From NCBI GenBank assembly GCA_964590105.1, contig CAZPYM010000002.1, positions 154,697 to 218,696 of the forward strand: a stretch of DNA of 64,000 nt. Direction: 5' to 3'. Both the position numbers and the translations under genes were made by a program. The notes under the pieces were generated by a model. It ran no database searches and was not told the DNA's origin. It saw only the letters and a list, made by a program, of their open reading frames with translations. This stretch comes from an uncultured Gammaproteobacteria bacterium. Its GTDB lineage: Bacteria; Patescibacteriota; Patescibacteriia; UBA11705; JABHMO01. Below are positions 1 through 49,993 of the stretch, piece by piece. The number at the start of each line of letters is the position of its first letter. Within the stretch, counting starts at the first letter, position 1.

Positions 1-276
1 ACCGCGGGTGATGGTTTTATGAATTCCGAAACACCATTCTTGTCCGTCTCCGCGGCAAGGCACGACGAGAATGCGGTGCGATGCTTTGTGTTCGGTAATG
101 GAATCCTCAATTTCATAAACTGCGCAATTCTCCGGAGAAACAGCTGCGTGCGCGCCGAGAAAATCACTTAATCCCGGCAATTCAGCAGTGAGATTTTCCA
201 TTGATTGTTTAATTGATGCTGGGACCATATCCCGGTGAAGTCGGCACTGCAGTAACCCCTGAATATTAAACTCCAT
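1..276 (-). CDS. Hypothetical protein, N-terminal part (gene continues beyond the window start). Higher-GC gene with GGAGA SD and TTGACA-17-TAGGAT promoter on the minus strand.
   Basis: Manual reverse-complement translation from ATG at 276 (MEFNIQGLLQCRLHRDMVPASIKQSM...) runs without a stop to position 1. AAGGAGAAAAATG on the minus strand. No family recognised. Confidence 0.4.
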   Translation of the reverse strand, partial: MEFNIQGLLQCRLHRDMVPASIKQSMENLTAELPGLSDFLGAHAAVSPENCAVYEIEDSITEHKASHRILVVPCRGDGQEWCFGIHKTITRG

Positions 277-497: not shown

Positions 498-2150
<1,653 letters not shown>

Positions 2151-2859: not shown

Positions 2860-3423
2860 TTACTTTTTTGAGGATCTGATAATGTGGCGAAGTTGGCGGC
2901 GGTAGCTGAACCGGCGCAGAGGCGGGAACAACCATTCTGCCACGGTCATGAAGATGGCGGCGAATTGTTTCAGATCCTTCCGCGGGCTGCGGCCGGCGTC
3001 AAAGTCAATTCCCTGCACTTCGAATTCGCAGGGAAGACAGGCCTTGGCAATCAACCAGACTTTGCTTTGTCTGGTTTTCTCGCAAAAGACAATTGCGCGA
3101 CTGGCTTCCTGGCTATCTGCGACCTTTGCCGCCGCTTCCAGATTTTCCCAGCTGGTGATGGTTGTGCTGATCGGAAGGTAGATGAAAGCTCGGACGCACG
3201 AGATGCTGTCAAAAATGCGGCAGAGCAATCCCCGCATTTCATCAGCTTCGGATTTTTCAGGATAATGAATGTTTGTCCTGCCGCCGCACAAAACAATCGT
3301 GTGAATCAAGCGATCTGCGATCGTTTTCGCGACAACGGTCAAATAGCTTTTGTAATTGCCGTCTTTCAAAATATCCGGCGGGACGCCGTAGCCCATGATA
3401 ATGGCAATTGTTTGTCCTTTCAT
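2860..3423 (-). CDS. DUF218 / YdcF-SanA-ElyC family protein.
   Basis: The conserved body starts at the internal Met (MKGQTIAIIMGYGVPPD...) with GGAGGAAAAAATG upstream. Motif pattern fits DUF218. Family call from memory. Confidence 0.55.
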   Translation of the reverse strand: MKGQTIAIIMGYGVPPDILKDGNYKSYLTVVAKTIADRLIHTIVLCGGRTNIHYPEKSEADEMRGLLCRIFDSISCVRAFIYLPISTTITSWENLEAAAKVADSQEASRAIVFCEKTRQSKVWLIAKACLPCEFEVQGIDFDAGRSPRKDLKQFAAIFMTVAEWLFPPLRRFSYRRQLRHIIRSSKK

Positions 3424-6206: not shown

Positions 6207-6380
6207 ATTATGAATAGGGCGGAATTGCGCTGTTGTGGGGGTTCAAAATCCTGAACCTTTACAACGCGGCGCGTTTTTATGTCTTGACCTGGCCGCCTTT
6301 TCTTGTTAACATAATAAGGCTTTTGTTGTTGTTTGACAATAAATCTCTCGACTGCGCTCGAGATCTATGAGGAGGGAAAA

Positions 6381-6782
6381 ATGTTTTATGCCCAGATAGC
6401 TTTTTTTTCGGTATTCTCCCTGTTCGCCGCGTGCGGCAGTTCCGCGAACAAGTCGGAAAGCAAAAAAGACGTTGACCCGGTGTTGCGGCAAACAGCTGAT
6501 GAAGCGTCGTGCGATCGGTTTGCCGAGGGCGAAGTCAAAGTGTTGAGGCGCGCTCAGACGCTCATGTGCCTGAACAATGGCGACGCCGGTGTTGTGCTGG
6601 AGCTGGCTTCAGAGCCGAGCGAGGACAGCGGCACGAAGATTGTTTACGATCTGCCTGCGCGTGGTTCGCAAAAATTCACCTTGCCCTTTATTGACGGATT
6701 TACAGTTAATGATATTTACGCTCGCCTTGATCGCGGCGAATGGCGCAAATTGTGCCGGGGAAGTAATCCGGCCGAAGAATAA
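6381..6782 (+). CDS. Small lipoprotein with 4 Cys. High-GC cassette.
   Basis: Start at the internal Met preceded by GAGGAGGGAAAAATG. Lipobox LFAAC-G. GC visibly higher than the backbone. No family recognised. Confidence 0.55.
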   Translation: MFYAQIAFFSVFSLFAACGSSANKSESKKDVDPVLRQTADEASCDRFAEGEVKVLRRAQTLMCLNNGDAGVVLELASEPSEDSGTKIVYDLPARGSQKFTLPFIDGFTVNDIYARLDRGEWRKLCRGSNPAEE

Positions 6783-6818
6783 ACTTATAGTCGATTGATC
6801 GCAATATCCGTAATACAA

Positions 6819-6845
6819 CTTCCGAACGCATTCGGGAGTTTTTTG
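6819..6845 (+). terminator. Intrinsic terminator cttCCGAAcgcaTTCGGgagTTTTTT. Near-identical copy at 13196..13225.
   Basis: 5-6 bp GC stem plus U-run. ~30 nt nearly identical to the second copy. Confidence 0.6.
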
Positions 6846-6869
6846 TTGAATAAAGTATTTCTGCCCGGC

Positions 6870-6898
6870 TTGACAGCGCAGATTTTTTCACTTATACT
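6870..6898 (+). promoter_or_regulatory. Sigma70-type promoter TTGACA-17-TATACT upstream of the radical-SAM gene.
   Basis: TTGACA at 6870-6875, 17-nt spacer, TATACT at 6893-6898. SD GAAGGAGG 6 nt before ATG at 6962. Confidence 0.55.
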
Positions 6899-6961
6899 GT
6901 TTTATTCTGATTGCACTTTGACAAGTCGATTCATTAACCTTTGGCAGAAGGAGGATAGGCA

Positions 6962-8326
6962 ATGCCGAGGAAGCAGCAGTTTGAAGTTGACGGCGTGAGG
7001 CACGCCACTATCAATGGTCATCGCTTTCATTTGCGGTGGACTGATCCGGGGAAAGATAATTTTCTCTGGATTGACGGCAAGCAGCCGCCATTGATACTGG
7101 ATCAGACAGCGGCAGATTTTGTCGCGCATTTGATTGACGCCATGTGGCTATTTCAGACCGGCGCGGGAGACAATTCTGCCCAAGTGATTAGACATGTTGT
7201 AGACAAAATGTATGACTGCTACGGGCGATCATCGATCATTCGAAAAAAGCGGGTCACAAGGGCCAGGATTGAAGCGGATTTCCAGCGGATTTTCGGCATG
7301 CTTATGGCGGTGGCCGACAGCGGTTGTCCGTATGAATCCGGGCTTGATTCCAAGGAGATCAATTATGGCGTCTGGGCGGCGCCGGCGCGCATGGATCTGG
7401 CAGTGACGTATCGATGCAATCTGCAGTGTAGCAAATGCTATCTTGGCGAGCGTAGCTCGCCGGATATGCCATTCGAATCATGGTTGGAAGTCTACAAAAG
7501 GCTTTGGGAAATCGGCATTTCACAGGTGGTGTTCACCGGAGGGGAGCCTTTGCTTCGTCCGGACATTGTGCAGTTGGTGTCCGAGGCAGACGAATTTGTC
7601 ACCGGGCTTATCACCAATGGAACAGAGCTCGCCCGGTTGGCACAGCCGTTGCGCGACGCCAGCCTGGATTATGTCCAGGTGACGATTGAATCTGCTTTCC
7701 CAACGGTTCACGATCTGATGACACAGACGCCCGGTTCATTGATGAAGACAATGGCCGGCATCAGGGCGGCGGTTGAGTGTGGATTACAGGTGGTGACCAA
7801 TACAACTCTGACAAAAGAGAATGCTGATGGTTTTTGCCGGCTTTTGCGCCAGTTAGAAGGACTCGGCGTGAAAAATGTCGCTTGCAACACGCTCATTTGC
7901 AGCGGACGCGGCACATATCATCGCATGCAGAATGGTCTTTCTGATGCAGAATTGCTCGCCGTAATCAAGCCGGCGCTGGCTGTGGCAAGAGACCTTGGTC
8001 AGAATCTGCAGTGGTATTCGCCGACCTGTTATAATCAGGGTGTGAATCCGATTGAGCTGGGCTTTGGCGTGAAGGCGTGTTCAGCCGCAGCTCACAACAT
8101 GATGGTTGGGCCGGATGGCGAAGTGTTTCCGTGCCAGTCATGGCCGAAATCGGTTGGAAACATCTTGCTGAATAGCTGGCCGGCAATCTGGGAACATCCC
8201 ACGTGCGTGGCTTTGCGCAATCACGAAATGGCGCCCGCGGCTTGCCGCGATTGCGAGCATTTGTCCGTCTGTGGCGGAGGATGCCCGCTCGACAAGGACG
8301 CGCGTCTCGGCGAGGTGAAGTCATGA
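6962..8326 (+). CDS. Radical SAM / SPASM-domain protein with ~130 aa N-terminal (RRE-like) extension. Putative peptide/protein-modifying maturase.
   Basis: CNLQCSKC (CX3CX2C, Cys152/156/159). C-terminal Cys cluster C-X2-C-X5-C-X3-C (CRDCEHLSVCGGGC) plus upstream CNTLICSG / CYNQG / CSAAAH, typical of the SPASM twitch. Stop overlaps the next start (ATGA). Confidence 0.85.
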   Translation: MPRKQQFEVDGVRHATINGHRFHLRWTDPGKDNFLWIDGKQPPLILDQTAADFVAHLIDAMWLFQTGAGDNSAQVIRHVVDKMYDCYGRSSIIRKKRVTRARIEADFQRIFGMLMAVADSGCPYESGLDSKEINYGVWAAPARMDLAVTYRCNLQCSKCYLGERSSPDMPFESWLEVYKRLWEIGISQVVFTGGEPLLRPDIVQLVSEADEFVTGLITNGTELARLAQPLRDASLDYVQVTIESAFPTVHDLMTQTPGSLMKTMAGIRAAVECGLQVVTNTTLTKENADGFCRLLRQLEGLGVKNVACNTLICSGRGTYHRMQNGLSDAELLAVIKPALAVARDLGQNLQWYSPTCYNQGVNPIELGFGVKACSAAAHNMMVGPDGEVFPCQSWPKSVGNILLNSWPAIWEHPTCVALRNHEMAPAACRDCEHLSVCGGGCPLDKDARLGEVKS

Positions 8327-9294
8327 ACAAGAGCATACTGGCGCTGCTGGCTTTTTGCCTGGCCCTGCCTGCGACAAAAGCGTTGGCCGGCGATACCGGC
8401 ACATACGAAATTCTGGATTACAGGGTCAATCTGACGCCGCGCGCTGACGGCACGGTGGATATTGACTATTATCAGAAATGGGCAGTGACCGGCGGGCACA
8501 TTCCATGGATTACGGTCGGCCTGCCGAACAGCGATTACGAAATCAAGAAAAGTTCAGGCAATGCCGCCTCCATCAAGCCGGCCAATAGCGGCGGTTGGAG
8601 CGGTGTTCGTCTGGATCTAGACCGGGATTATCAGCCGGACGAGACATTTGAGGTGAACTTTTCCATTGTTCAGACCAAGTTGTTCTGGGCTGATGAAGAA
8701 AAGTATTACCTCGCATACACTCCGGGCTGGTATGATCAGGCTCCGGTTCATAACTTGGACGTAACGGTACGCTTTTTTGCCAAGCTGGAATCGGTCACGG
8801 CCGAGCCGGAACCAAGCAAAAATGGCGATGAAACTTTGAGCTGGCAAACTTCGCTGGGCAAGGGCCAGAAGTTCAGCTTTGAGATTTCTTTTCCAAAGGC
8901 AGTGTTTGAGCAACCGATTTCGGAAGAAAATCTGAAAGATACTGGCGGAGTCGGTTGGTTGATCATCCTCATTATCTTCATTCTGCTAGTTGTCGTTATT
9001 ATTTTCCTCGCCGCCAGCGGAGTTTTTGGCGGGGGCGGATTTGGCGGCGGGGATGATGACGACGGGTACAGCGGTGGTAGCATTTTTTACGGTGGCGGCA
9101 GCGGAGGCGGATCTGGCGGTGGCGGCCGTTCAGCCGGCGGCGGAGGTGGCTTTGGCGGACGAACCAGTTCGTGCGCCTGTGCCTGTGTATCCTGCGCCTG
9201 TGCTTGCGCTTGCGCCGGCGGCGGCGGGGCTGGTTGCGACCGCAAAGCCAAGCATCTGTGTCCTGTTTGCAATCAAACAAGGGCAGAGAGCTAG
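8323..9294 (+). CDS. DUF2207-like exported membrane protein with Gly-rich tail extended by a (Cys-Ala)n repeat and a CxxC end.
   Basis: The start overlaps the rSAM stop (ATGA). Signal peptide MNKSILALLAFCLALPATKALA. ~200 aa ectodomain resembling the DUF2207 N-domain (TYEILDYRVNLTPRADGTVDIDYY...). One TM (WLIILIIFILLVVVIIFLAA). Tail GGGGFGGGDDDDGYSGG...GGGGGFGGRTSSCACACVSCACACACAGGGGAGCDRKAKHLCPVCNQTRAES. Confidence 0.7.
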   Translation: MNKSILALLAFCLALPATKALAGDTGTYEILDYRVNLTPRADGTVDIDYYQKWAVTGGHIPWITVGLPNSDYEIKKSSGNAASIKPANSGGWSGVRLDLDRDYQPDETFEVNFSIVQTKLFWADEEKYYLAYTPGWYDQAPVHNLDVTVRFFAKLESVTAEPEPSKNGDETLSWQTSLGKGQKFSFEISFPKAVFEQPISEENLKDTGGVGWLIILIIFILLVVVIIFLAASGVFGGGGFGGGDDDDGYSGGSIFYGGGSGGGSGGGGRSAGGGGGFGGRTSSCACACVSCACACACAGGGGAGCDRKAKHLCPVCNQTRAES

Positions 9295-9367
9295 CCGGAT
9301 TACGGCTAAATAGAAAACAATTCCCTGGACCTAGTTAAGTTCAGGGAGTTTTATTTGTATGGGACAC

Positions 9368-9396
9368 TTGACAAATTATAAGTTTCTTTATATGAT
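9368..9396 (+). promoter_or_regulatory. Sigma70-type promoter TTGACA-17-TATGAT.
   Basis: Consensus hexamers with a 17-nt spacer, ~50 nt upstream of ATG 9445 (SD AAGGGAGG). Confidence 0.5.
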
Positions 9397-9444
9397 TTTA
9401 TAATTACCCGAACATTGACAACTGACAAATTAAGGGAGGGTTTA

Positions 9445-10647
9445 ATGCAAAAGCTTAGTGTTGTGCTATTGCTGATTGCGGGCGCTGTTTTTACCGGCTG
9501 CAGTGAACAGCTGGGGGCGCTCGGAGGAACGTTTGCGCGTTCTTTGCTTTTCGTGCTTCCGTTTATCGCAGTCATGATTGGCATTATTTTTGCAATGAAC
9601 AAATGGATCGTTGATAGCCGCGGCGCAACAAATGAAAGACTTTGTTCAGCTGTCGGCGTTGTTAGTTTTCCGGTTTTGTTTTTCGTAGCCTTTTACTTGT
9701 ACTGGGGCTGGAGCTGGTGGGTCATCGGCGCCGCTTTTTTGCTCGGCGGGCCAATCGGCTGGTTCAGCTATACGCTCGATGAGCTTTTGGTAGAATTTTG
9801 GGAAAATCGAGTTGTTACCCTGCCGGGACTTGTCGGGTTGATTCTTGGAGGCGCGGTGATTGTCTCGTTTTTTACCGGCATTTGGCTGGAAGGCGATATG
9901 TATGTAACGAACAAGGCCTGTTCAGCTCGGGCAGTGGTTGAAAGATATAGCGAGACCTGCACCAAGGACGATGATGGGGTTCGTAGCTGTTCCGATTCCT
10001 GGGATTACTACTATCATGTTGACCGAATTGCTGATGGTTGGCAATTGCCTTCCCTGGAAAAAGGAAGAGATTACCAGCTCGGTCGCGGTGATTATGGCCG
10101 AGAAGACCGAGTTAGATTAGAATCATATTTTCTGATTGGCGGGCAGTTTTATTCTGAAGAACAAAAGCAATGGACAGAGTTTCGTTGGCTTGTTCTGAAA
10201 AAAAAGATCCCGGTGGAGTTGAGGCAGGTGCAACACATCCGCAGCAACTTTTACGGGAATCCGGCTGAAAACGCAGGCGCTGTTAGCGAGCCGGCGCCAT
10301 TGCCGGAGAGTGTGGCGGCAAGGGTGTTGACCGGTGATGATCTGCCGCCCGGATCAACAACAATGAAAGCCATTTCAATTGTTTGGGATACGGTTAAGCT
10401 ACTTTTTTCAGAAGAAGAATATAGGGGAATATTGTATATCTTCTTATGTGTTTTTGCATTAATTGGAACGCTGGCATTTTTTGTGCCGGTAACAAGGCCT
10501 TCAGTAGCGGCATTTACGAGTTGTTTTTTCATAATCGCTCTAATTGCAGTAATGATTATTGCGGCCAGAACCGGCAGTCTTGGTTCCGGCAGACGCCGGC
10601 GTTCTTCCGGCGGCGGCGGATTTGGTGGAAGAACGTTTACGCGTTAG
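9445..10647 (+). CDS. Polytopic membrane lipoprotein with Gly-rich C-terminal tail (GGGGFGGRT). Possible paralogous partner of the DUF2207-like protein.
   Basis: Start at the internal Met (MQKLSVVLLLIAGAVFTGC lipobox) with SD AAGGGAGGGTTTAATG. Predicted 3-4 N-terminal TMs, a ~200 aa soluble domain and 2 C-terminal TMs. Ends ...RRRRSSGGGGFGGRTFTR, the same motif as the preceding protein. Confidence 0.6.
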   Translation: MQKLSVVLLLIAGAVFTGCSEQLGALGGTFARSLLFVLPFIAVMIGIIFAMNKWIVDSRGATNERLCSAVGVVSFPVLFFVAFYLYWGWSWWVIGAAFLLGGPIGWFSYTLDELLVEFWENRVVTLPGLVGLILGGAVIVSFFTGIWLEGDMYVTNKACSARAVVERYSETCTKDDDGVRSCSDSWDYYYHVDRIADGWQLPSLEKGRDYQLGRGDYGREDRVRLESYFLIGGQFYSEEQKQWTEFRWLVLKKKIPVELRQVQHIRSNFYGNPAENAGAVSEPAPLPESVAARVLTGDDLPPGSTTMKAISIVWDTVKLLFSEEEYRGILYIFLCVFALIGTLAFFVPVTRPSVAAFTSCFFIIALIAVMIIAARTGSLGSGRRRRSSGGGGFGGRTFTR

Positions 10648-10657
10648 GGAGGTGATA

Positions 10658-11230
10658 ATGCGAAAAACATGTTTTCTGTTTGTCTTTTTGGCATTGCTAT
10701 TTAATGCTTGCTCTAAGGATGAGCAGGCTGATCAGCAGATGCCGGAAGCATCAAAGTACGGAGACCAAGCGCGGGTTCTCACGGGAGAGCCGGCGTTTCC
10801 GGCGCTGGAAAAAAGTTGGATTATTGACAAAGCCAATGCGGTTTCATTAGAAGTTGAAAGGACCGCCGATGCCGTTTTGCAGTCATTGCAGGACGACGGA
10901 TTGGCTGAAGTTGTTGTGTTAATTATCACAGGGGTGAAAAAGCCCGGTGACTATGCTACTCAATACGGACGTTTTCTTCAACTGGGCAAAGCAGGGCCGG
11001 CTTCGGACGGAGGAAACAGAGGCATTGTCTGGTTGGTCAGACCGGATGCTGATGAAAAAATGACCATCTCGGTTGGTCGCGGACTGCCCGGTTTTACCTC
11101 GCAGGACTATGGCGAGATTATGGACGCCGTGGGTGATTATTGTCAGTTCAACAATTATGACAAATGCGTGCAGAGACTCGCGGAAAAGACCAGTGAGGTT
11201 TTGCGCCGGCTGCAAAAAGTCAAACCCTAA
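10658..11230 (+). CDS. TPM-domain-like (DUF477/YgcG-type) lipoprotein.
   Basis: Start at the internal Met with SD GGGAGGTGATAATG. Lipobox LFNAC. Segment GIVWLVRPDADEKMTISVGRGLPGFTSQDYGEIMDAV resembles the TPM core. Family call is tentative. Confidence 0.45.
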   Translation: MRKTCFLFVFLALLFNACSKDEQADQQMPEASKYGDQARVLTGEPAFPALEKSWIIDKANAVSLEVERTADAVLQSLQDDGLAEVVVLIITGVKKPGDYATQYGRFLQLGKAGPASDGGNRGIVWLVRPDADEKMTISVGRGLPGFTSQDYGEIMDAVGDYCQFNNYDKCVQRLAEKTSEVLRRLQKVKP

Positions 11231-11252
11231 ATGCGACAAGGAGGCAAACCGC

Positions 11253-11900
11253 ATGAAAAAGGGAACAATCATTCTTCTCGCAGTGCTCGGAGTCTTCATT
11301 CTCGGCGGTGTGTCCATGTGCAGTTCTGTGGTGGGCGTGTGGAACACGCTCAACAGCAACTACCAGGGCGTGCAGGCCGGCAAATCGCACTACGGTGCGG
11401 CGCTCGACATCGTGCCGGAAAAGATCAAGGGAGTGTGGCAGCTCTCTGATCAGTATTTGGATCACGAATCCGACACATTCAAGATGGTGGCGGCGGCTAG
11501 GAGCGGACTGCTCCAATCCATCGATGGTTTCAAAAAGGCTGAGCAGGGCGGCGCTTCTGATGCGGACATGCTGAAGAATGGCCAGGGCGTCATGGACATG
11601 TTCAACAAGTTCAAGGATGCTAGCCTGGCAGTCAATGTGCAGATCGAGGCCTATCCGCAGCTTCGTGGCGCGGAAACAACCAAGACGGCCATGCGGGCAG
11701 TCGAGGAAGGCGTCAATGAAATCAAGACGGCGCTGGACGACTGGATCGCGTCCATCAAGGTGTACAATGAGTATCGCGGCAGCGCCTGGCCATCCATTCT
11801 TGGAGGATTTATGGCCAAGTTCCCGGTCGAGATTCCCTACTACGAAGCGGAAAGGACAAAGCTCAATATCGATGAGCTGAATCCAAAAAGCAACAAGTAG
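11253..11900 (+). CDS. LemA family protein.
   Basis: Start at the internal Met (MKKGTIILLAVLGVFILGG...) with SD AAGGAGG. N-terminal TM, then WNTLNSNYQGVQAGKSHYGAALDIVPEKIKGVWQL... consistent with LemA (PF04011). Family call from memory. Confidence 0.65.
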   Translation: MKKGTIILLAVLGVFILGGVSMCSSVVGVWNTLNSNYQGVQAGKSHYGAALDIVPEKIKGVWQLSDQYLDHESDTFKMVAAARSGLLQSIDGFKKAEQGGASDADMLKNGQGVMDMFNKFKDASLAVNVQIEAYPQLRGAETTKTAMRAVEEGVNEIKTALDDWIASIKVYNEYRGSAWPSILGGFMAKFPVEIPYYEAERTKLNIDELNPKSNK

Positions 11901-11996
11901 CGCCCTCGTGCGCTAAATAAAAATATCTTCCAGAGAACGTTCTGGGAGATTTTTTGTTAGACAAAGAAGCTTAATTTGAACTAAAATCGCGCGCCA

Positions 11997-12025
11997 TTGA
12001 CATTTCTATATAATTTTGCTATAGT
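11997..12025 (+). promoter_or_regulatory. Sigma70-type promoter TTGACA-17-TATAGT.
   Basis: Consensus hexamers. SD GGAGGTGGAGACATG at 12064. Confidence 0.5.
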
Positions 12026-12063
12026 TAATTGTTGTCATTTGACAATTTAACGGAGGTGGAGAC

Positions 12064-12597
12064 ATGGTTACTCTAGCAATCATTTTCGTCGTTGGGCTGT
12101 TTGGATTGGCCGCGAGCCTTTGTTATTTGTTTTTTAGCAACAGAGTACATTCGGGCGTCAGCCTGGCGATAATTTCCTTGCTTGCTTCTCTTTTGATTCT
12201 GTTATTTGCCGGCTTTAATCTGATTAGTCAGAATCTTGATCTTAAGTCGGAGGAGGAAAGTCCGCGCGTCGAGGAAGGTGAGCCAGTTGAGCTGAATCCT
12301 TCGGGTTGCGTGCTTGAATGGAAAGATTTGCGAATCGTAGGAAACTACGGCGCGATCACGGTTGCAAATAAGTCGAATGCCGACGTTGAAGTCTGGGTGT
12401 CTGCGACCGGCATGAGCCTACAGGCAAAGCTGGAACCCAAGCGCGGCATCCGTCTTCGTTCCGGCGTGAGGTTTCCGGAAACAGACATGGCCTGGACAGT
12501 GAAGCTCTCGACCGGCGAGAGCCGAAGCTTCGACTTCTTGAATTGTTTGCCGCTTGCTTGCGATCTTCAACCAGCATATGGGCTGGAACGGGAATAG
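12064..12597 (+). CDS. Hypothetical membrane-anchored protein (2 N-terminal TMs plus ~110 aa domain).
   Basis: ORF with strong SD. High GC. No recognisable family. Confidence 0.5.
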   Translation: MVTLAIIFVVGLFGLAASLCYLFFSNRVHSGVSLAIISLLASLLILLFAGFNLISQNLDLKSEEESPRVEEGEPVELNPSGCVLEWKDLRIVGNYGAITVANKSNADVEVWVSATGMSLQAKLEPKRGIRLRSGVRFPETDMAWTVKLSTGESRSFDFLNCLPLACDLQPAYGLERE

Positions 12598-12606
12598 GAG
12601 GACAAC

Positions 12607-12900
12607 ATGGGCGAAATATTCCTGCTGTGGTTTGGCCGTTTGTGCCTGCTGTTGGTAGGGCTGGCGGTTGTCTGGTGGTTCAGGCAGTCGTGCGGAGACA
12701 TTTGGTCAAGCGTTGAAGAACGGATTCCAGTTTTGGCGCTCGGCCTTTTCGCTCTGGTGATTTGCGCGCTGACCTTTGCACCGCCTCGAATCAACTATTT
12801 GAAGTATCCGCCGGTAATCAGAGCCATGAACGCGCCGGCGCCTGATCAGATCTCACGATGTCTTGAAGGGAAAATCAACATTCCGATTTGTCGGAAATAG
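12607..12900 (+). CDS. Small hypothetical membrane protein (2 TM).
   Basis: SD ATAGGAGGACAACATG. Hydrophobic segments. High GC. Confidence 0.4.
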   Translation: MGEIFLLWFGRLCLLLVGLAVVWWFRQSCGDIWSSVEERIPVLALGLFALVICALTFAPPRINYLKYPPVIRAMNAPAPDQISRCLEGKINIPICRK

Positions 12901-12910
12901 AAGGGGGCCC

Positions 12911-13180
12911 ATGGTTTCCATGTATATTACTCTTGCGTGGTTAATGATCATTGTGACTTTGTTTTTGGCTTTGGGCGCGTGGAGCTATTGGAGTGAACCG
13001 CCCGAACCGGCAAAAGCAATTTTTTGCGGATTGCTGGCGACAGCACTCCTTCTCCTGGCTGGAGTTTTCTTTGTGCGCGCGCAGAATGAGCAGAAAAAGA
13101 TAAAGGCGGCTATGCTAGAGGTGGAAGACACCGTCATCCATGAAGACCTGCTGGACGTCAAAAGCAGGCAACTTCCATAA
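12911..13180 (+). CDS. Small hypothetical membrane protein (2 TM).
   Basis: Internal Met start preceded by AAGGGGGCCCATG. Two hydrophobic helices. Confidence 0.35.
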   Translation: MVSMYITLAWLMIIVTLFLALGAWSYWSEPPEPAKAIFCGLLATALLLLAGVFFVRAQNEQKKIKAAMLEVEDTVIHEDLLDVKSRQLP

Positions 13181-13195
13181 TTCAATGAATAAAAA

Positions 13196-13225
13196 CTTCC
13201 CGAACGCATTCGGGAGTTTTTTTTG
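13196..13225 (+). terminator. Intrinsic terminator cttCCCGAAcgcaTTCGGGagTTTTTTTT. Right-hand copy of the island boundary repeat.
   Basis: Stem-loop plus U-run. Near-identical to 6819..6845. Confidence 0.6.
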
Positions 13226-13260
13226 TTACGAATTACGAATCTGCTACGAATCTACGTATC
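13225..13260. repeat. TACGAAT heptamer array (gttacgaattacgaatctgctacgaatctacgtatc). Second copy lies upstream of nusA at 16842..16888.
   Basis: ~35-nt near-identical block at two loci 3.6 kb apart. Confidence 0.6.
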
Positions 13261-14196
13261 ACTATTAATAATAATACTTGCGGTTGAGTTCCATTTTTGA
13301 AGGATTTCCAGCCGCGTATCTTTGTCGTGGAATTTCAACACTTTGTCGTTGATAACAACGTTGGTGTTGTTTTGCTTTGCCAGTTCGCGCAAGTGACGAG
13401 GAAGAACTTTTAGCTGAAATTTTTTAGCCAGAGATTCAGCCCAAAAAAATAATTTGCAATTTAGAGCGCCTTCGGAAATTTTTTGAGTCAGTGGCCGCGC
13501 CTTGATCTGCCAGCGGGCATTTGTTTGCACGGGAAAATAATTTGGCAGATATTTTTTGGTCCAAATATTGGCCTGAAAAAAGTTGTTGATTAATTCCGGT
13601 CGGCCGCAAACCGGCACGAATTGGTTTAGCCAGTAAATAAAGTGTACGTCATTTTCATAAGCCAGCGACTGGAGATTTAAATTGTCTTCGGTAATGTAAA
13701 AGCTCAGACAGATTTTGTCTTTTTGTGATTTGACGGTCGGTCTTTGGCGGAGCAATTTCATGGCCAAAACGCAAAAAAGTCTGGCGGTCCAGATTTTATT
13801 TCTGGCGCAAATAATTGTCAGGTCGATGTCGCTGCCTTCGCGCGCGTTTTGATAAGCCAGATTATTGCAAATAAAAATTGCCCGAACATAGGGCAGTCGA
13901 TTGAGTAGCTGGATATATTTTTTTGCTTTTTTTATTTTCGCCTGGGCCAGTAAATATTTTTTCTTTCTTTCAAAAACAATATTGTCCTTGCGTTTTAAAA
14001 AATAAAATCCTTCGTTTGAGCCGAGGATTTTTTCATTAAGCAGATTATCCAGAGCGAAATTAACTTCATTTAGGGAATAATTTGTTTCCGGCTGCCAGAG
14101 ATTTTTCCATATTTCCCAGCCGGTCAGAGGAAAATCAAAAATATTAAAATACGAAATGGTTCTTAAGATTGTTTTTTCTAGGCTTCTCTCTTGCAT
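13252..14196 (-). CDS. Nucleotidyltransferase-fold hypothetical protein.
   Basis: 314 aa. GSDIDLTI motif typical of the pol-beta-like NTase fold. Confidence 0.45.
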   Translation of the reverse strand: MQERSLEKTILRTISYFNIFDFPLTGWEIWKNLWQPETNYSLNEVNFALDNLLNEKILGSNEGFYFLKRKDNIVFERKKKYLLAQAKIKKAKKYIQLLNRLPYVRAIFICNNLAYQNAREGSDIDLTIICARNKIWTARLFCVLAMKLLRQRPTVKSQKDKICLSFYITEDNLNLQSLAYENDVHFIYWLNQFVPVCGRPELINNFFQANIWTKKYLPNYFPVQTNARWQIKARPLTQKISEGALNCKLFFWAESLAKKFQLKVLPRHLRELAKQNNTNVVINDKVLKFHDKDTRLEILQKWNSTASIIINSDT

Positions 14197-16838: not shown

Positions 16839-16841
16839 ATT

Positions 16842-16888
16842 GTTACGAATTACTAATCAGCTACGAATCTACGAATGGCTATGAATGT
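16842..16888. repeat. TACGAAT heptamer array immediately upstream of the nusA start codon.
   Basis: gttacgaattactaatcagctacgaatctacgaatggctatgaatg. Ends 4 nt from the nusA ATG (minus strand). Confidence 0.6.
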
Positions 16889-17148
16889 TGATAGCGATTT
16901 TGTAAAATAGTAGGTGAATTTATAATTGGTGGTTTTAAAAAAAACACTAGTTTAATTATCATAAACTAGCTTACTATGAAAGTATAGCAGGCTAATTAAA
17001 TTTTGTCCATAATGAAAGGTCTTGTCAAGCGGATTTAATTGTGTTAAAGTAGTTCTAGTTTAATAAATTAAGGGTATTCTGCGTTACGACCATTAATTTT
17101 AGCGAACTTCTATTTTGCTAGAATTACAGAATATCAACTCATTTTCAT

Positions 17149-17673
17149 ATGTCACAGCATTATGAATTAGTCTACATTGTCCCGATTAAATATTTGGACG
17201 ATGAGCTGCAAACGATTACTCAGTCAGTAAATGGACTAATTAAGAAATTTGTCGGAGAAATTGTTCTGGAAAGTTCATTGGGTCGACAACGCCTAGCCTA
17301 TCCCATTAATCAAGTTCATCAGGGCACTTACAATGTTGTTGAATTTGATATGAACGAAGAAGAGATAAAAAAGTTCAGCCGGGAACTCGGCATGGTGCCG
17401 GAAGTTTTGCGCTTTTTAATTATTTGCAAAAAGGTAAAGACTGAAAAGGAAATCAAAAAAGAAGAGCAAATTAAAGCCGGGATGAGGCGCGCCAAAGAAG
17501 AAGAGTTGGCCAAGATAGAAGAAGAAGACAAGGGCGGAATGAAAAAACTGGCCGAAGCGCCAACCCCGACTGCAGAATCAAAGCCGGAGAAAATAAAACA
17601 AGAAGCCAAAAAAACTTCCCTTGAAGAGTTGGACAAAAAATTAGACGAAATTTTGAGCGACGATATATTATAA
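17149..17673 (+). CDS. rpsF: 30S ribosomal protein S6 with charged C-terminal extension.
   Basis: MSQHYELVYIV... bS6 fold. Acidic/Lys-rich tail. Confidence 0.9.
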   Translation: MSQHYELVYIVPIKYLDDELQTITQSVNGLIKKFVGEIVLESSLGRQRLAYPINQVHQGTYNVVEFDMNEEEIKKFSRELGMVPEVLRFLIICKKVKTEKEIKKEEQIKAGMRRAKEEELAKIEEEDKGGMKKLAEAPTPTAESKPEKIKQEAKKTSLEELDKKLDEILSDDIL

Positions 17674-17678: not shown

Positions 17679-17744
17679 AGTAAGTAGTGAGTAGTGAGTA
17701 GTAAGTAGTGAGTTAACTCACCACTCACCACTCACCATTCACCA
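17679..17744 (+). promoter_or_regulatory. Long imperfect hairpin built from tandem heptamers (AGTGAGT x5 / CTCACCA x4) between rpsF and ssb.
   Basis: ~22 of 26 positions pair. No U-run follows. Confidence 0.5.
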
Positions 17745-17750
17745 AATCAT

Positions 17751-19214: not shown

Positions 19215-19311
19215 AAGGTAAAAGTTGAAATCCGAAAGTTGAAGGTTGAAAGATTGAAGTTGAGGGTCATGACTGTAGTAATTAAAAAAAGAAGATAAAA
19301 AAACATACAAA

Positions 19312-19342
19312 AACAACGCTCTCGCTCGGAGTGTTGTTTTTT
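19312..19342. terminator. Intrinsic terminator of the AACAAC...CGGAGTGTTGTT family (copy 1).
   Basis: aacaacgctctcgctcggagtgttgtttttt. Confidence 0.6.
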
Positions 19343-19346
19343 AATC

Positions 19347-19375
19347 TTGACAAAGTTAATAACTTTTGCTATACT
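19347..19375 (+). promoter_or_regulatory. Sigma70-type promoter TTGACA-17-TATACT.
   Basis: Perfect -35, 17-nt spacer, TATACT. SD CAGGAGGAGAGAATG at 19411. Confidence 0.55.
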
Positions 19376-19410
19376 TTTTTGTTCTGCAATTGGCAAACCA
19401 GGAGGAGAGA

Positions 19411-19650
19411 ATGGCTGAAATTACGCGCTTCGGAATAGACATAGCGGTCAATACTCATTTGGATGGCACGCGCATTCATTACCTGTTTGCGCAGGTTGTG
19501 CCGCAATTGAAGACTGATGATTCCGGAAACGTTGTGCCGGAACAGATTGAAAATTTCAGAAAATCTCTCCGCGCCGCCTCGCGTGAGGCGCCGGATGAAG
19601 TCACGGCAATGAAGTGCCGAAAGTTGTTGGCGTTCTTACGCCAATTCTAA
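19411..19650 (+). CDS. Small hypothetical protein (79 aa). High-GC cassette gene.
   Basis: Internal Met start with strong SD. Flanked by two family terminators. Noticeably GC-richer than neighbours. Confidence 0.45.
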   Translation: MAEITRFGIDIAVNTHLDGTRIHYLFAQVVPQLKTDDSGNVVPEQIENFRKSLRAASREAPDEVTAMKCRKLLAFLRQF

Positions 19651-19658
19651 AACCAATC

Positions 19659-19692
19659 AAAACAACACCCGCGCACGGAGTGTTGTTTTTTT
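19659..19692. terminator. Intrinsic terminator of the AACAAC...CGGAGTGTTGTT family (copy 2).
   Basis: aacaacacccgcgcacggagtgttgttttttt. Confidence 0.6.
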
Positions 19693-21415: not shown

Positions 21416-21419
21416 AGAA

Positions 21420-21437
21420 AAATTACAAATTACAGAT
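21420..21437. repeat. TACAAAT/TACAGAT heptamer pair 5 nt upstream of the kinase start. 15 nt are identical to the rbfA leader.
   Basis: aaattacaaattacagat. Exact 15-mer aaattacaaattaca is also at 49199-49213. Confidence 0.55.
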
Positions 21438-21443
21438 CCCCTC

Positions 21444-21477
21444 AAAACAACACCCGCGCTCGGAGTGTTGTTTTTTG
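21444..21477. terminator. Intrinsic terminator of the AACAAC...CGGAGTGTTGTT family (copy 3).
   Basis: aacaacacccgcgctcggagtgttgtttttt. Confidence 0.6.
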
Positions 21478-21497: not shown

Positions 21498-22190
21498 CTA
21501 AGCCGTTACCTTTTTCATATAGGCCAACCAAAAATTTCTTTTGTAGCTTTGTCCTTTGAATCTGGTATAGCTGGTTTTTTTCAGTAGTTTGATAATTTTA
21601 AAATATTTTGAATAAAGATTAATAAAATCCTGCCCAATAAAAACTCTTTCAATTAAATGCATATCTTCATTAACGTAAGTATCAGGCTCCGGTCCGGGGT
21701 TAATTTTGAGTAATGCTTTGGCGTTTTTGTCGCCTTCTTTGCACAAAGCTTTCACAAAAAAATAGCCGTTTTCTTTTAATACTCTATGCGTCTCAGATAA
21801 ATATATATACCTCTCTTTTTCATTTAATGAATTGGAAGAGGTGACGTCGAGCGCCAGATCAAATGTTGCGTCTTCAAACGGATATTCTGATCCGATATTA
21901 TGAAGTTTATAATCGACTTTAATTTCCAGCTCTTTGGCTCGGGATATTGCAAGGCCAATTGCCGTCTGGGATATTTCCAGGCCGGCAACTTTGTTGCCCA
22001 GTTCTGCTAAATAATTGGCATTTCGGCCGGTGCCGCACCCCAGATCCAGTATTGCCAGGTTTTCCGGTTTAATGTTTTCCTGCTTTTTTAAGAATTTCAA
22101 AAAGCGCAGTACATCCTTTTGCGGATTGCCTTCTTTTGTGACCAATTGTGGTCTTTGATATTCGTTTTCCCAGGCAGCGGTTTGAGGCAT
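21498..22190 (-). CDS. Class I SAM-dependent methyltransferase.
   Basis: ILDLGCGTGRNANYL motif I. 230 aa. Confidence 0.8.
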   Translation of the reverse strand: MPQTAAWENEYQRPQLVTKEGNPQKDVLRFLKFLKKQENIKPENLAILDLGCGTGRNANYLAELGNKVAGLEISQTAIGLAISRAKELEIKVDYKLHNIGSEYPFEDATFDLALDVTSSNSLNEKERYIYLSETHRVLKENGYFFVKALCKEGDKNAKALLKINPGPEPDTYVNEDMHLIERVFIGQDFINLYSKYFKIIKLLKKTSYTRFKGQSYKRNFWLAYMKKVTA

Positions 22191-22203
22191 AAGTTATACG
22201 CTG
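22126..22203. repeat. Left copy of a 78-bp direct repeat (methyltransferase start codon plus first 25 codons).
   Basis: 75 of 78 nt identical to 24305..24382. Confidence 0.85.
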
Positions 22204-23710: not shown

Positions 23711-23738
23711 TTGACATATTGTTGGAATCTGTTATACT
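23711..23738 (+). promoter_or_regulatory. Sigma70-type promoter TTGACA-16-TATACT.
   Basis: Consensus hexamers. SD AGGGAGGGTAAGATG at 23795. Confidence 0.5.
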
Positions 23739-23794
23739 AAAAAGTTAGCAATTGTGCTGACAACCTTGTTAACGTTGTAGCAAGGGAGGGTAAG

Positions 23795-24226
23795 ATGGCA
23801 AAAGTGTCAGTAGAACGACGCGTCGAGCAGGTTTACAACGGCAGACACTACAAGGGCTACGTAAAGGTCGCCGATAGCAAATTCGACTATGAGCTCGTGT
23901 TCGGAGTTCCGATCGACAAAATGAAGCCGGTCAAGGATGAAAACGAGGTTCGCCGTCTCTTCCAGATCACGGTGAAGCGCGGTAACGTGAACATCGAGCT
24001 TACGAAGGAGGAATACGGCTTCTTTTTCTCGATGGTCGTGGAGTTGGCGGTAAAATTCTACAACAACCCGCAAACCAGAGTGATGGGTATGCTGGTTCAG
24101 GACAGAGGTCCGATGGCTGCCTTTGGTGCTTCCTGTTCGATCTGCATGACGAATAGCGGGTTGTGCGATTTTCCGTCGGAGCTTTGCGAGATGCTGAGTG
24201 CACCGAAGTTTGGTTGTACGTTCTAA
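23795..24226 (+). CDS. Hypothetical 143 aa protein with C-terminal six-Cys segment (GASCSICMTNSGLCDFPSELCEMLSAPKFGCTF). High-GC cassette gene.
   Basis: Strong SD plus consensus promoter plus terminator. GC clearly above the backbone. Confidence 0.5.
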   Translation: MAKVSVERRVEQVYNGRHYKGYVKVADSKFDYELVFGVPIDKMKPVKDENEVRRLFQITVKRGNVNIELTKEEYGFFFSMVVELAVKFYNNPQTRVMGMLVQDRGPMAAFGASCSICMTNSGLCDFPSELCEMLSAPKFGCTF

Positions 24227-24249
24227 GCAAGGAAATACCTTGCGCCCGA

Positions 24250-24287
24250 GCCCCTTGCGAAACACGTTTTCGCTTGGGGCTTTTTTC
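24250..24287 (+). terminator. Intrinsic terminator (gccccttgcgaaacacgttttcgcttggggc plus T-run).
   Basis: Long GC stem followed by tttttt. Confidence 0.65.
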
Positions 24288-24304
24288 TTAAAAAAAGAAT
24301 TATT

Positions 24305-24382
24305 TAATTTTTTTCTTTTGCGGATTGCCTTCTTTTGTGACCAATTGGGGTCTTTGATATTCGTTTTCCCAGGCGGCGGTTT
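24305..24382. repeat. Right copy of the 78-bp direct repeat (truncated 5' end of a methyltransferase gene, minus strand).
   Basis: Encodes MPQTAAWENEYQRPQLVTKEGNPQK then runs into unrelated sequence. 3 mismatches versus 22126..22203. Confidence 0.85.
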
Positions 24383-24440
24383 GGGGCATATAAGAACATT
24401 GCAATAATTTTTTATTTTTACGGCGGCGTTTCTCTTTTCG

Positions 24441-31124: not shown

Positions 31125-31136
31125 CATTTTAAAAAA

Positions 31137-31171
31137 CAAAGGGGGATGGCTCACACGGAGCCACCCCCTTT
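31137..31171. other. Strong hairpin aaagggggatggctc-acac-ggagccaccccctttg.
   Basis: 14-bp stem with one mismatch. No clear U-run. Confidence 0.4.
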
Positions 31172-31206
31172 GAAATTTAGGAGAGTTTTAGAAAAACCCC
31201 CCAAAT

Positions 31207-36898: not shown

Positions 36899-37025
36899 AT
36901 TTTTTCGTGCATTGATATTATATAAAATAGCTAAAAATAAAGCAATCCCTTGACAAATCTTATTCACATGGTAATTTAATTATCTGAAATCGTTTGTTTG
37001 ATGGCCCTTTGACAAGGAGGTCGCT

Positions 37026-37571
37026 ATGGCGAAAAACCAAGATGAAGATCGTGAAAAAAAGGGCTTCTGTATTTTGCCCTACATTGAAGGTCATTTCGTA
37101 CGCGACCATTGCGAGGCGAAATTAAGAATTTTCGTCGGGAACAACAAGAAAGACAGTTGTATTTTTTTTGAACTGGATGTTTGGACGGCGAAGGGTTTGT
37201 CCGCCGGGATGAGAGAGTTTTTCAAGGTGGTCTTAAATGTTGGAGAAGATAATTCTGGCCTGGTTGTCCTGTCGGCTGGCGAGGAGAACGTCGCGAAACT
37301 AGGATATCATTTCGTGATGTCCTGGCCGCCGGTGAAAGGGCGGGTGGAAATGCGAGACGTCATGACGATTGACGAGCTTCGTTATTTGGCTTGTGACGCA
37401 TTTTGCGAAATGAATGGGTTGACTGCCGCGGTTGCAGAAGATCAGGCCGCCGCTCCGCCGCTGGAAGACAATCCTTTTGCCGAGGAGGATGGTCGCTTGG
37501 CCGAGCCTCCGGATTTGCCGGCGGCGAGTTTGTCGAGAGAGGACGAGGATCGCGACTGCGATTCTCCGTGA
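37026..37571 (+). CDS. Hypothetical acidic protein. High-GC cassette gene.
   Basis: SD AAGGAGGTCGCTATG. cccTTGACAA motif twice upstream. Terminator follows. Confidence 0.45.
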   Translation: MAKNQDEDREKKGFCILPYIEGHFVRDHCEAKLRIFVGNNKKDSCIFFELDVWTAKGLSAGMREFFKVVLNVGEDNSGLVVLSAGEENVAKLGYHFVMSWPPVKGRVEMRDVMTIDELRYLACDAFCEMNGLTAAVAEDQAAAPPLEDNPFAEEDGRLAEPPDLPAASLSREDEDRDCDSP

Positions 37572-37583
37572 TTGATTCAATAG

Positions 37584-37614
37584 CGGGCGCTATCAATAGC
37601 GCCTGTTTTTTTTG
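37584..37614 (+). terminator. Intrinsic terminator (ggcgct-atcaat-agcgcc plus T8).
   Basis: Stem-loop plus long T-run. Confidence 0.6.
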
Positions 37615-39508: not shown

Positions 39509-39537
39509 TTGACAAATATTTTATAAATTGTTAATAT
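39509..39537 (+). promoter_or_regulatory. Sigma70-type promoter TTGACA-17-TAATAT.
   Basis: Consensus -35 and spacing. SD AAAGGAGGAGAGATG at 39572. Confidence 0.5.
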
Positions 39538-39571
39538 GCAAAAAGTTTGTCAGCAACAAAAAGGAGGAGAG

Positions 39572-39874
39572 ATGGGCAAGAAAGGTAGAGACGAAGTAAT
39601 CCTTTTTATTGTTACAACTGGCGGCGCAGCTGGCATGGAAAAGGTCTGTTTCATGCTTGAATTTGATGAAGTGGAAAAACCACTGGTTCCGGTTGCCAAC
39701 GTGCATACGTATTTGAAAGGAATGGGTTACCGGCTGACCGGCCGTGCGGAAACTGAGCTGGCTATTCCGGTTGCGGCCATGATTCGACTGAAAGGAAAAG
39801 AAAAAGTAAGCAGGGAGGCGGAATTTACGCTGTCCGGTCAGGCAATCATGGAAATTTGGAAAAGACCTTCATAA
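39572..39874 (+). CDS. Hypothetical 100 aa protein. Moderately high-GC cassette gene.
   Basis: Internal Met start with strong SD. Terminator immediately downstream. Confidence 0.45.
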   Translation: MGKKGRDEVILFIVTTGGAAGMEKVCFMLEFDEVEKPLVPVANVHTYLKGMGYRLTGRAETELAIPVAAMIRLKGKEKVSREAEFTLSGQAIMEIWKRPS

Positions 39875-39879
39875 CTCAA

Positions 39880-39911
39880 AACCGACCCCGCAACAGCGGA
39901 GTCGGTTTTTC
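39880..39911. terminator. Intrinsic terminator (ccgaccccgcaacagcggagtcgg plus T-run).
   Basis: 8-bp GC stem and ttttt. Confidence 0.65.
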
Positions 39912-39924
39912 TATTTTCAGGAAG

Positions 39925-49331: not shown

Positions 49332-49360
49332 TTGACAAAAATATTTTTTAATGGTATGCT
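49332..49360 (+). promoter_or_regulatory. Sigma70-type promoter TTGACA-17-TATGCT.
   Basis: Consensus hexamers. SD CAAGGAGGTACACCATG at 49403. Confidence 0.55.
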
Positions 49361-49402
49361 CCCTCAGTTAGGGATTGTCCCTGTATTTCAAGGAGGTACA
49401 CC

Positions 49403-49900
49403 ATGAAGAAGGTTTATCTGTTTGTTTTCGCTCTGATACTGGTTGGTTTTTCTTCAGCTTCGGCCGGGGAGAACAAATCCTTTACCGGGTACATCCAGGT
49501 GGATGACAACTGGAAGGATGTGCGAATCCTCCGTAACGTGGCCTTCAGTCCCGACGGGACAAAGATGCGCGTTGTTGAGAGGGTGGAGACCATGCTGGTC
49601 GAATGGGTTCGTTCCGACATGGGGCGGTGGATCTTCCGGTCGGTAGTGGAGAACGGCGTCTGGTTCGACCAAATCGTGGTTGAGAAAGACAAGACTGTCT
49701 GGGCCGAGAAAATCGGCGATGGTGGCGACAAGATTTTCCGTTTCGAAGCAACGCGCGTGACGGAAGGCGTGGACAAATGCTACAACTACCGTTGCGGTGC
49801 GATCTACCAAGTCGAGGCAATTCCCTCGTCCTGCAAGTGGAATGGGCCGGGGGGGGGCTGTACGATTTCAGAAGATGACAAGAAGAGCCTTGTGAAGTAG
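49403..49900 (+). CDS. Secreted hypothetical protein (signal peptide, 4 Cys near the C-terminus). High-GC cassette gene.
   Basis: MKKVYLFVFALILVGFSSASA signal. C-terminal CYNYRCG...SCKWNGPGGGCT. GC visibly above the backbone. Confidence 0.5.
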   Translation: MKKVYLFVFALILVGFSSASAGENKSFTGYIQVDDNWKDVRILRNVAFSPDGTKMRVVERVETMLVEWVRSDMGRWIFRSVVENGVWFDQIVVEKDKTVWAEKIGDGGDKIFRFEATRVTEGVDKCYNYRCGAIYQVEAIPSSCKWNGPGGGCTISEDDKKSLVK

Positions 49901-49904
49901 TTTA

Positions 49905-49947
49905 CGACCAAGCAGGGTTGGCTCAATGAGCCGAGCCTGTTTTTTTA
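49905..49947 (+). terminator. Intrinsic terminator after the secreted-protein gene.
   Basis: ggctcaatgagcc / cagg...cctg hairpins plus T7. Confidence 0.55.
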
Positions 49948-49993
49948 ATATGAACGTTGAAAAATTTCTGCAAATGAATTATGCTGGAGAAGT

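Follow-up and report, generated by a model that had tools for sequence, protein, structure and literature searches.

Shine-Dalgarno-led, GC-richer genes interspersed among SD-less housekeeping operons of a CPR bacterium: candidate moron-like modules

The window, by which we mean the whole 64-kb stretch of DNA that was analysed, has a backbone base composition of 41% GC and carries groEL/ES, nusA, S6-SSB-S18, efp, recA, ftsK, clpP, rny, HU and rpoB/C among its backbone genes. At the efp-recA locus (19.3-19.7 kb) lies a compact unit which the first-pass annotation had described as a terminator, TTGACA-17-TATACT, CAGGAGG, a 79-aa ORF and a terminator, and the sequence does read so. The features of this unit, together with a third copy of its hairpin, are the following.

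19310..19342, plus strand: hairpin T1, the efp terminator, first of three direct copies of one hairpin
19347..19375, plus strand: promoter TTGACA-17-TATACT with TG (extended -10), for the 79-aa gene
19400..19405, plus strand: Shine-Dalgarno (SD) sequence AGGAGG, 5 nt before the ATG
19411..19650, plus strand: 79-aa gene, GC.50, member of a small family of about 12 clusters
19659..19691, plus strand: hairpin T2, the terminator of the 79-aa gene, a direct repeat of T1
21444..21476, plus strand: hairpin T3, 32/33 identical to T2; T2 and T3 bracket an MFS-SKI block

Further genes preceded by a strong SD sequence are dispersed over the window, and eight of them form an island.

1..276, minus strand: 5' part of a 176-aa SD-led gene with AAGGAG; promoter TTGACA-17-TAGGAT at 361-333
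2860..3423, minus strand: 187-aa SD-led gene with GAGGAGG, GC.51
6284..6844, plus strand: unit with a 133-aa lipoprotein gene (6381-6782); TTGACC-17-TAACAT, AGGAGG at 6370, terminator 6817-6844
6820..6844 and 13198..13222, plus strand: near-identical terminators bracketing the 6.4-kb island
6845..13222, plus strand: island of eight SD-led genes with three TTGACA-17 promoters
6962..8326, plus strand: island rSAM/SPASM gene
8323..9294, plus strand: second island gene, with the start used in the assemblies
9445..10647, plus strand: island lipoprotein gene
10658..11230, plus strand: island TPM gene
11253..11900, plus strand: island LemA gene
up to 13180, plus strand: three island membrane-protein genes
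23711..24290, plus strand: unit with a 143-aa gene (23795-24226), GC.51, Cys-rich C-terminus; TTGACA-16-TATACT, GGGAGG, terminator
36950..37610, plus strand: unit with a 181-aa gene (37026-37571), between rny and ymdB; TTGACA-16-TAATTT, AGGAGG, terminator
39509..39915, plus strand: unit with a 100-aa gene (39572-39874); TTGACA-17-TAATAT, AGGAGG with 4-nt spacing, terminator 39878-39909
49332..49950, plus strand: unit with the gene of a 165-aa secreted protein (49403-49900), GC.54; TTGACA-17-TATGCT, AGGAGG, terminator

In public data, proteins of the window are found on a contig of 594 kb. The window has 100% identical counterparts among the contigs of three independent assemblies (Logan, ENA and JGI), without variation among them, therefore the source is a real, clonal, small-genome CPR organism and an assembly chimera is ruled out. 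In 185,579 reference genomes the best matches of its EF-P are only 40-52% identical, and come mostly from Patescibacteria/CPR MAGs (Parcubacteria, Uhrbacteria, Doudnabacteria, Saccharibacteria and others). No tRNA genes were found in the window and an Rfam scan matched no family in it, on which ground we rejected the idea that the GC-rich units are known RNA genes.

When 1.84 billion cluster representatives were searched exhaustively with HMMER, 12 relatives of the 79-aa protein emerged, most of them about 80 aa long, and the family was seen only in small-genome, CPR-like contexts. Its alignment has conserved columns, and the AlphaFold model, built from 11 sequences, has a pLDDT of 97 and consists of four helices and a small hairpin; a fold search with this model returned no PDB or viral match. 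As far as alignment and modelling go, both the confident fold and the column conservation mark the product of the 79-aa ORF as a real protein. The suspicion that the units are artefacts, i.e. products of a chimeric assembly or spurious ORFs, has next to no probability: the assemblies are identical, the 79-aa family has the conservation pattern and the confident model of a protein, and the SD and the terminator of each unit are in register. This reading is already refuted for the window as a whole.

To score SD pairing, the 20 nt upstream of each start were matched with the canonical anti-SD (ACCUCCUUU). This pairing is assumed, since the 3' end of the host 16S rRNA lies outside the window and the anti-SD motif was reported to be absent in about half of Parcubacteria (PMC9297842). 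The resulting energies are bimodal: 13 GC-richer genes (six single genes and seven genes of the island) fall between -10 and -12.5 kcal/mol, whereas the approximately 43 backbone genes lie mostly above -6 kcal/mol. Three genes complete a class of 16, namely the partial gene 1-276 (minus strand; AAGGAG, -8.3 kcal/mol), the island gene starting at 8323, and 2860-3423 (minus strand). With the assumed anti-SD, the class as a whole spans -8 to -12.5 kcal/mol; it makes up about 10 transcription units and about one quarter of the window's genes, and its members have 47-56% GC. The motif is GGAGG in 15 genes and AAGGAG in one, and is decayed in none. GC content of at least 0.47 was associated with a strong SD (Fisher p=2.7e-8); it must be noted that the test took the second island gene with a start at 8281, thus without an SD, while the assemblies put its start at 8323. 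SSB, recA and HU are high-GC genes that have no SD.

These results bear out the first-pass annotation in that the genes it listed exist, are GC-richer and have an SD. The list was nevertheless not entirely correct, the gene at 1-276 being on the minus strand and 2860-3423 having been missed; as these two units are on the minus strand, the notion that all units lie on the plus strand was rejected. GGAGG was said to stand 5-9 nt before the ATG, which is right for most genes, with the exceptions of AAGGAG at 1-276 and the 4-nt spacing at 39572; the spacing in the modules is 4-9 nt.

The GC-richness of the class is visible in all three codon positions (GC1/2/3 of the single SD-led genes.56/.39/.60 vs..51/.34/.43 in the backbone). 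AAG, GAG, ACG, TCG and CCG are commoner in SD-led than in backbone genes, and in general the G-ending codons of Lys, Glu, Thr, Ser and Pro and the C-ending codons of Phe, Asn and Tyr are raised; cysteine is three times as frequent as in the backbone. Host-like codon usage had been named as an observation that would speak against two gene populations, and in the SD-led genes both codon usage and GC are non-host. High expression was considered as a cause of the GC3 shift and rejected, the pooled codon usage of groEL, efp, rpoB/C, r-protein genes, HU, SSB and recA being the same as that of the rest of the backbone.

The backbone genes, about 43 in the window, have A/T-rich leaders without an SD, as had been claimed. 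Leader A+T content is 71% in the backbone vs. 53% in the SD-led genes, and G is rare in the backbone leaders. The base at -1 is U in 34 of 43 backbone genes (79%), e.g. at the starts of 498-2147 (minus strand) and of the genes at 18651 and 54969, vs. one of 13 SD-led genes, and the predicted folding energy of the -30 to +30 region is -5.5 kcal/mol in the backbone vs. -9.7 kcal/mol in the SD-led class. Judged from these sequence features, the modules follow a start pattern other than that of the backbone: GGAGG, no U at -1 and a more folded start. The tATG context is present also in nine of ten genes of the relative L087. U at -1 can lengthen the pairing with A37 of the initiator tRNA, aiding SD-less initiation. 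The combination of U at -1 with a G-poor, AU-rich leader has the look of a start signal in its own right, independent of SD. The idea that GTAATT-type repeats serve the host as another SD motif was rejected, as such repeats occur in only five of 43 leaders and the repeat unit varies between leaders. Tandem repeats of about 7 nt are found in intergenic leaders and trailers (19215-19265, 17715-17745, 21416-21440, 49190-49215), with a site-specific unit: agttgaa after efp, ctcacca before ssb, and gtaattt before SKI and before the gene at 48855. Similar short tandem repeats are found in other CPR loci.

All single-gene units have, at the sequence level, consensus matches to a promoter of their own and to an intrinsic terminator. 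The first-pass annotation had assigned TTGACA-17-TAT(A/G)NT to most of them; consensus promoters are indeed present, but the one at 6381 is weaker and the one at 23795 has a 16-nt spacer. Exact matches to TTGACA-N16-18-TANNNT number 21 in the window vs. 1.5 expected by chance, and about half of these drive backbone units (rny, clpP, rpoB, a divergent pair at 46.9 kb and others). The TGnTAnnnT form is common to both classes, and the promoters of rny and of the 79-aa gene both read tttgcTATACT. By these matches the sigma70-type promoter of the modules (TTGACA, about 17 nt, TGnTAnnnT) is that of the host itself. Modules and backbone having one promoter type in common, promoter quality cannot tell the classes apart, contrary to the earlier claim that it splits the two populations, and the promoters are native.

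CPR bacteria are commonly episymbionts, and one could imagine that the units are meant for another cell, i.e. that, in analogy to T-DNA, the episymbiont passes their DNA or mRNA to its bacterial partner, where it is expressed. All that speaks for this reading is the contrast between the universal consensus signals of the units and a host which otherwise does not use SD, and we consider it highly improbable: the same promoter type drives the host's rny, clpP and rpoB, many of the products have signal peptides, lipoprotein or membrane anchors suiting the producer's own envelope, and neither border repeats nor transfer machinery lie near the units, which are dispersed.

The history of the 79-aa gene could be followed in related species. 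A copy with 59% identity stands directly after efp in L087 (genome GC.48), and one with 43% identity upstream of recA in L088 (genome GC.32), whose contig stops before efp. RecA is 84-85% identical among the window species, L087 and L088, and EF-P 79% between the window and L087. Both copies keep the TTGACA-17-TAnAnT promoter and an SD (GAGGAG, TAAGGAG) in SD-less backbones, and have C, not U, at -1. The GC content of the gene tracks that of the host (gene/genome.50/.41 in the window,.53/.48 in L087,.33/.32 in L088). In four of five family contexts the SD energy is -7.7 kcal/mol or lower, and in the remaining one the SD is weak (-5.8 kcal/mol). In L094, a fifth context of the family, AAAGGAGG is present, but GC3 is lower than in its own backbone. 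The 79-aa gene is not an insertion between genes that are adjacent in relatives, being present there at the same locus. By these sequence comparisons the 79-aa gene is old, with promoter and SD retained through species divergence; it is a genuine gene, confined to its lineage and evolving fast, selection maintains its SD, and it is not a recent import. The recurrent acquisition that the first-pass annotation proposed for the cassettes thus does not fit this one, since copies occupy the efp-recA locus in two further species with promoter and SD kept and with GC following the host.

The island tells a different story. Its rSAM/SPASM protein, in which both the rSAM and the SPASM domain are present, has more than 2,500 relatives in a family that is mostly outside CPR; no curated NCBIfam model reaches its cut-off with this protein. 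The best relatives are 60-64% identical (range 56-64%), and belong to Desulfobacterales, Zixibacteria, Latescibacterota, Acidobacteriota and Planctomycetes, with one from Patescibacteria. A 307-348 aa protein, TPM and LemA are conserved operon partners of rSAM. This rSAM-X-TPM-LemA operon is present in three CPR genomes (the window, L175 and L181), at a different chromosomal site in each, and in all three it is SD-led and 0.07-0.12 in GC above the backbone, with a TTGACA-17 promoter at L175 and L181. In a non-CPR genome of 62% GC (L182) the composition of the operon is the host's own. In a quick NJ tree, which is star-like in shape, the CPR copies do not form a monophyletic group. The history of the operon, as read from these sequences, fits transfer across phyla. 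The GC content of the modules tracks host GC, yet in the three CPR genomes it is about 0.1 above it, an offset that is accounted for by neither simple amelioration nor portability.

An import is also compatible with the gene at 37026. In six related genomes (L097, L098, L099, L105 and L181 among them) the genes rny and ymdB lie next to each other or overlap, and in the window this pair is split by the 37026 unit, which is antisense. For the six single-gene units no Pfam or PHROG family was found, and the 133-aa and 143-aa proteins had no NCBIfam match either; the homologue search with the 165-aa protein matched only the protein itself, and no donor lineage can be named for any of the single-gene units. 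As to a phage origin, PHROG gave no hit for the units, nor did any of 50,697 phage records match.

The earlier proposal was recurrent import of small genes from a GC-richer, SD-using lineage. It agrees with the cross-phylum island operon, with its different site in each CPR genome and its non-monophyletic CPR copies, and with the 37026 gene; it does not agree with the 79-aa gene, the host-type promoters, the lack of a donor for the single-gene units and the lack of GC excess in pooled CPR loci (see below). In its strict form, this would be plain horizontal transfer, in which all units came from such a lineage and their SDs and codon usage are undecayed relics of the donor, functionless in the present host. 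Deviant GC and codon usage, the mostly non-CPR family of the island with its non-monophyletic CPR copies, the insertion into rny-ymdB, the flanking direct repeats described below and the single-gene units for which no family or homologue was found would all be expected from it. We consider plain transfer unlikely. The 79-aa gene stands at the efp-recA locus in three species with SD and promoter kept, while its protein is only 43-59% identical and its GC follows the host; the family member in L094 has GC3 below that of its host; an SD-type motif is present in 16 of 16 genes and decayed in none, which is unexpected for neutral relics; and the promoters have the host-specific TGnTAnnnT form. It is possible that "old and maintained" does not extend beyond the 79-aa unit, because shared-locus homologues were found for this one single-gene unit only; among the other five, just the 165-aa protein was searched alone.

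Direct repeats are found at the borders of several blocks. The 79-aa unit is flanked by 43-nt direct repeats of the terminator hairpin (81% identical), and a weaker repeat pattern surrounds the 79-aa gene of L087, from which the MFS-SKI block is missing. As a sequence pattern, the three copies of the 33-nt hairpin (T1, T2 and T3) suggest that one hairpin was the target of insertion more than once. A 76-bp direct repeat (22116-22191 and 24315-24390, 96% identical), which duplicates the 5' end (first 25 codons) of a methyltransferase gene, brackets a 2.1-kb mosaic block containing a Peptidase_S51 gene, a C39-like peptidase gene (30% GC) and the 143-aa unit (51% GC), so that two SD-less genes share this block with the SD-led unit. 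A 54-nt, TACGAAT-rich direct repeat (13223-13276 and 16840-16893, 83% identical) brackets the conserved nusA-yidC-PRC-314aa operon. The repeats are long, site-specific and of variable length, suggesting that they may have arisen by single-crossover integration of circular DNA or by template switching, not by a transposase; no integrase or transposase family occurs among the genes annotated for about 1-30 kb of the window. As the repeat-bracketed blocks include ordinary SD-less genes (MFS-SKI, the nusA operon), this insertion signature is not specific to the SD-led class. By this pattern it is a sign of general genome plasticity, with the efp-recA interval as an apparent hot spot.

It is of interest how general the arrangement is. 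When about 90 SD-poor CPR loci were pooled, SD-led genes were shorter but not GC-richer (p=0.4), and a lineage-wide rule that SD-led genes are GC-richer in SD-poor CPR was rejected on this basis. The pattern is strong only in some genomes (L015, L019, L091, L103, L175 and L181). One of them, L015, is a distant CPR (1.2-Mb contig, EF-P 41% identical) with the same pattern as the window: in L015 2399-8285 five small GGAGG-led genes of 54-64% GC lie within 6 kb, in an SD-less backbone of 40-46% GC. Our literature search found no description of a two-class start arrangement in CPR bacteria.

Two observations bear on whether the host ribosome has an anti-SD. GGAGG occurs 19 times inside the backbone coding sequence vs. 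32 times expected from synonymous shuffles (z=-2.7; control motifs -1.1 to +3.1), and this depletion gives a weak hint that an anti-SD is active. SD conservation in the 79-aa homologues may be taken as another hint of its presence.

A different explanation of the same observations is that the SD-led genes constitute a native translational regulon, in which the SD controls translation or mRNA stability and the genes are expressed under particular conditions. In Bacillus a strong 5' SD might protect mRNA from RNase J/Y, and by analogy the 5' SD could stabilise the mRNA here; alternatively, the anti-SD could be mostly masked, as by bS21/bS18/bS6. Such a regulon would be consistent with the conserved SD of the 79-aa homologues, with the native promoters and with the neighbours of the island operon in L175, which are SD-led and include a Clp_N protein and a KGG-repeat protein, the latter presumably of a stress-protein family. 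A precedent exists in Bacteroidia, where the anti-SD is sequestered by bS21/bS18/bS6 and rpsU is autoregulated in an SD-blind ribosome (PMC7797042, PMC13000453). The bS6 of the window (17149-17673) has 174 aa with a long, charged, Lys/Glu-rich C-terminal extension, and because bS6 helps to sequester the anti-SD in Bacteroidia, this tail may, by analogy, matter here. Still, masking and stabilisation stand here as analogies; the non-host codon usage and GC would not be required of a native class; units are patchily distributed, rare or lacking known homologues; the site of the island operon differs in each genome; and no common regulatory motif was seen beyond promoter and SD. A native regulon therefore seems rather unlikely to us.

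We lean towards the interpretation that the units are moron-like accessory modules, translated by SD pairing in an otherwise SD-independent host. Each module would be built of promoter, SD, gene and intrinsic terminator, and be placed between, often antisense to, housekeeping operons. The host ribosome would retain a usable anti-SD, on which the accessory genes depend, since their GC-richer, more structured starts presumably cannot use the SD-independent route of the backbone. The consensus signals may persist because with them a gene stays expressible wherever it lands. In that case old insertions would stand beside newer ones in this class, some of them imported from outside CPR. The products probably have surface or accessory functions, because they are small, lineage-restricted and often secreted, lipoproteins or membrane proteins. 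In a bolder version of this interpretation, which we regard as quite improbable, the clade runs two initiation systems, an SD-independent one for the core (AU-rich leader, U at -1) and an SD-led one for the accessory set with SDs under selection, possibly with a conditional regulon and with circulation among CPR and other phyla. As for the conditional regulon, the anti-SD could be unmasked in some states only, in analogy to the control exerted by bS21 in Flavobacteria.

It is instructive to compare these modules with known systems. Phage morons, reportedly autonomous promoter-gene-terminator units between prophage genes (Hendrix and colleagues), are similar in having their own sigma70-type promoter and intrinsic terminator, a deviant composition and small accessory cargo, and the 37026 unit lies, as a moron would, between genes that are adjacent in relatives (rny and ymdB). 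Unlike morons, the units stand in a bacterial chromosome among housekeeping operons (groEL, efp, recA, rny, rpoB) with no prophage, at least one of them is old and has been kept at the same locus in related species, and the contrast to the neighbouring genes reaches the mode of translation initiation, which is no part of the moron concept. With genomic islets and islands they share atypical GC and codon usage, for some units a patchy distribution, direct repeats at several block borders and a cross-phylum island operon. They differ from these in that no integrase, transposase (about 1-30 kb annotated) or tRNA target was seen, most units are single-gene and the GC of the 79-aa unit tracks the host across species. 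Integron cassettes are likewise small single-gene units ending in a hairpin, and as in integrons repeated hairpins delimit units (T1-T2-T3), but the units described here have their own promoters and SDs, are dispersed and not arrayed beside an integrase and attI, and their hairpins are plain GC stems with T runs, i.e. typical terminators. The closest parallel in translation is offered by SD-blind Bacteroidia, whose mostly SD-less genomes have a minority of strong-SD genes (PMC7797042, PMC13000453). A strong-SD minority in an SD-poor genome implies that some special set of genes still makes use of the anti-SD; in Flavobacterium johnsoniae this is one ribosomal protein gene, whereas here it would be about 16 accessory genes of deviant composition, in another phylum.

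Translation start in CPR bacteria is poorly understood, many of them having been reported without an anti-SD motif (PMC9297842). The window can be regarded as a natural experiment, in which one quarter of the genes have a consensus SD and the rest have U at -1 and unstructured, AU-rich leaders. If the host 16S rRNA keeps CCUCC, initiation would be dual-mode, and only accessory genes would take the SD route; if CCUCC is missing, some other reason must be sought for the conserved GGAGG motifs. In either case, GC and SD are an unsafe marker of recent transfer in such genomes. If the dual system is true, portable signals would let SD-led genes circulate among CPR and other phyla.

Some minor observations concern the cysteine-rich proteins. 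The proteins of the units 23795-24226 and 49403-49900 end in Cys-rich tails (e.g. GASCSICMTNSGLCDFPSELCEMLSAPKFGCTF), and might be substrates of the radical SAM/SPASM enzyme of the island. No precursor peptide of a RiPP cluster was identified. Two further loci, L091 3791-4111 and L094 4305-5018, concern the 79-aa family: its domain occurs in one genome as a fusion with a Cys-rich zinc-ribbon domain (P0010), and in L091 the zinc-ribbon domain is a separate SD-led gene of 106 aa near the 79-aa homologue. The fusion hints that the 79-aa and the zinc-ribbon small proteins may work together.

The ftsK-clpP interval contains a perfect TTGACA-17-TATAAT promoter (31654-31626, minus strand) and a strong terminator (about 31175-31135), with about 470 nt between them. 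This segment (31135-31654, minus strand) has no convincing ORF and no Rfam match; it has a long internal hairpin (31312-31417) and may be a non-coding RNA of an unknown kind. At the corresponding place in L087 there is just a 49-aa call.
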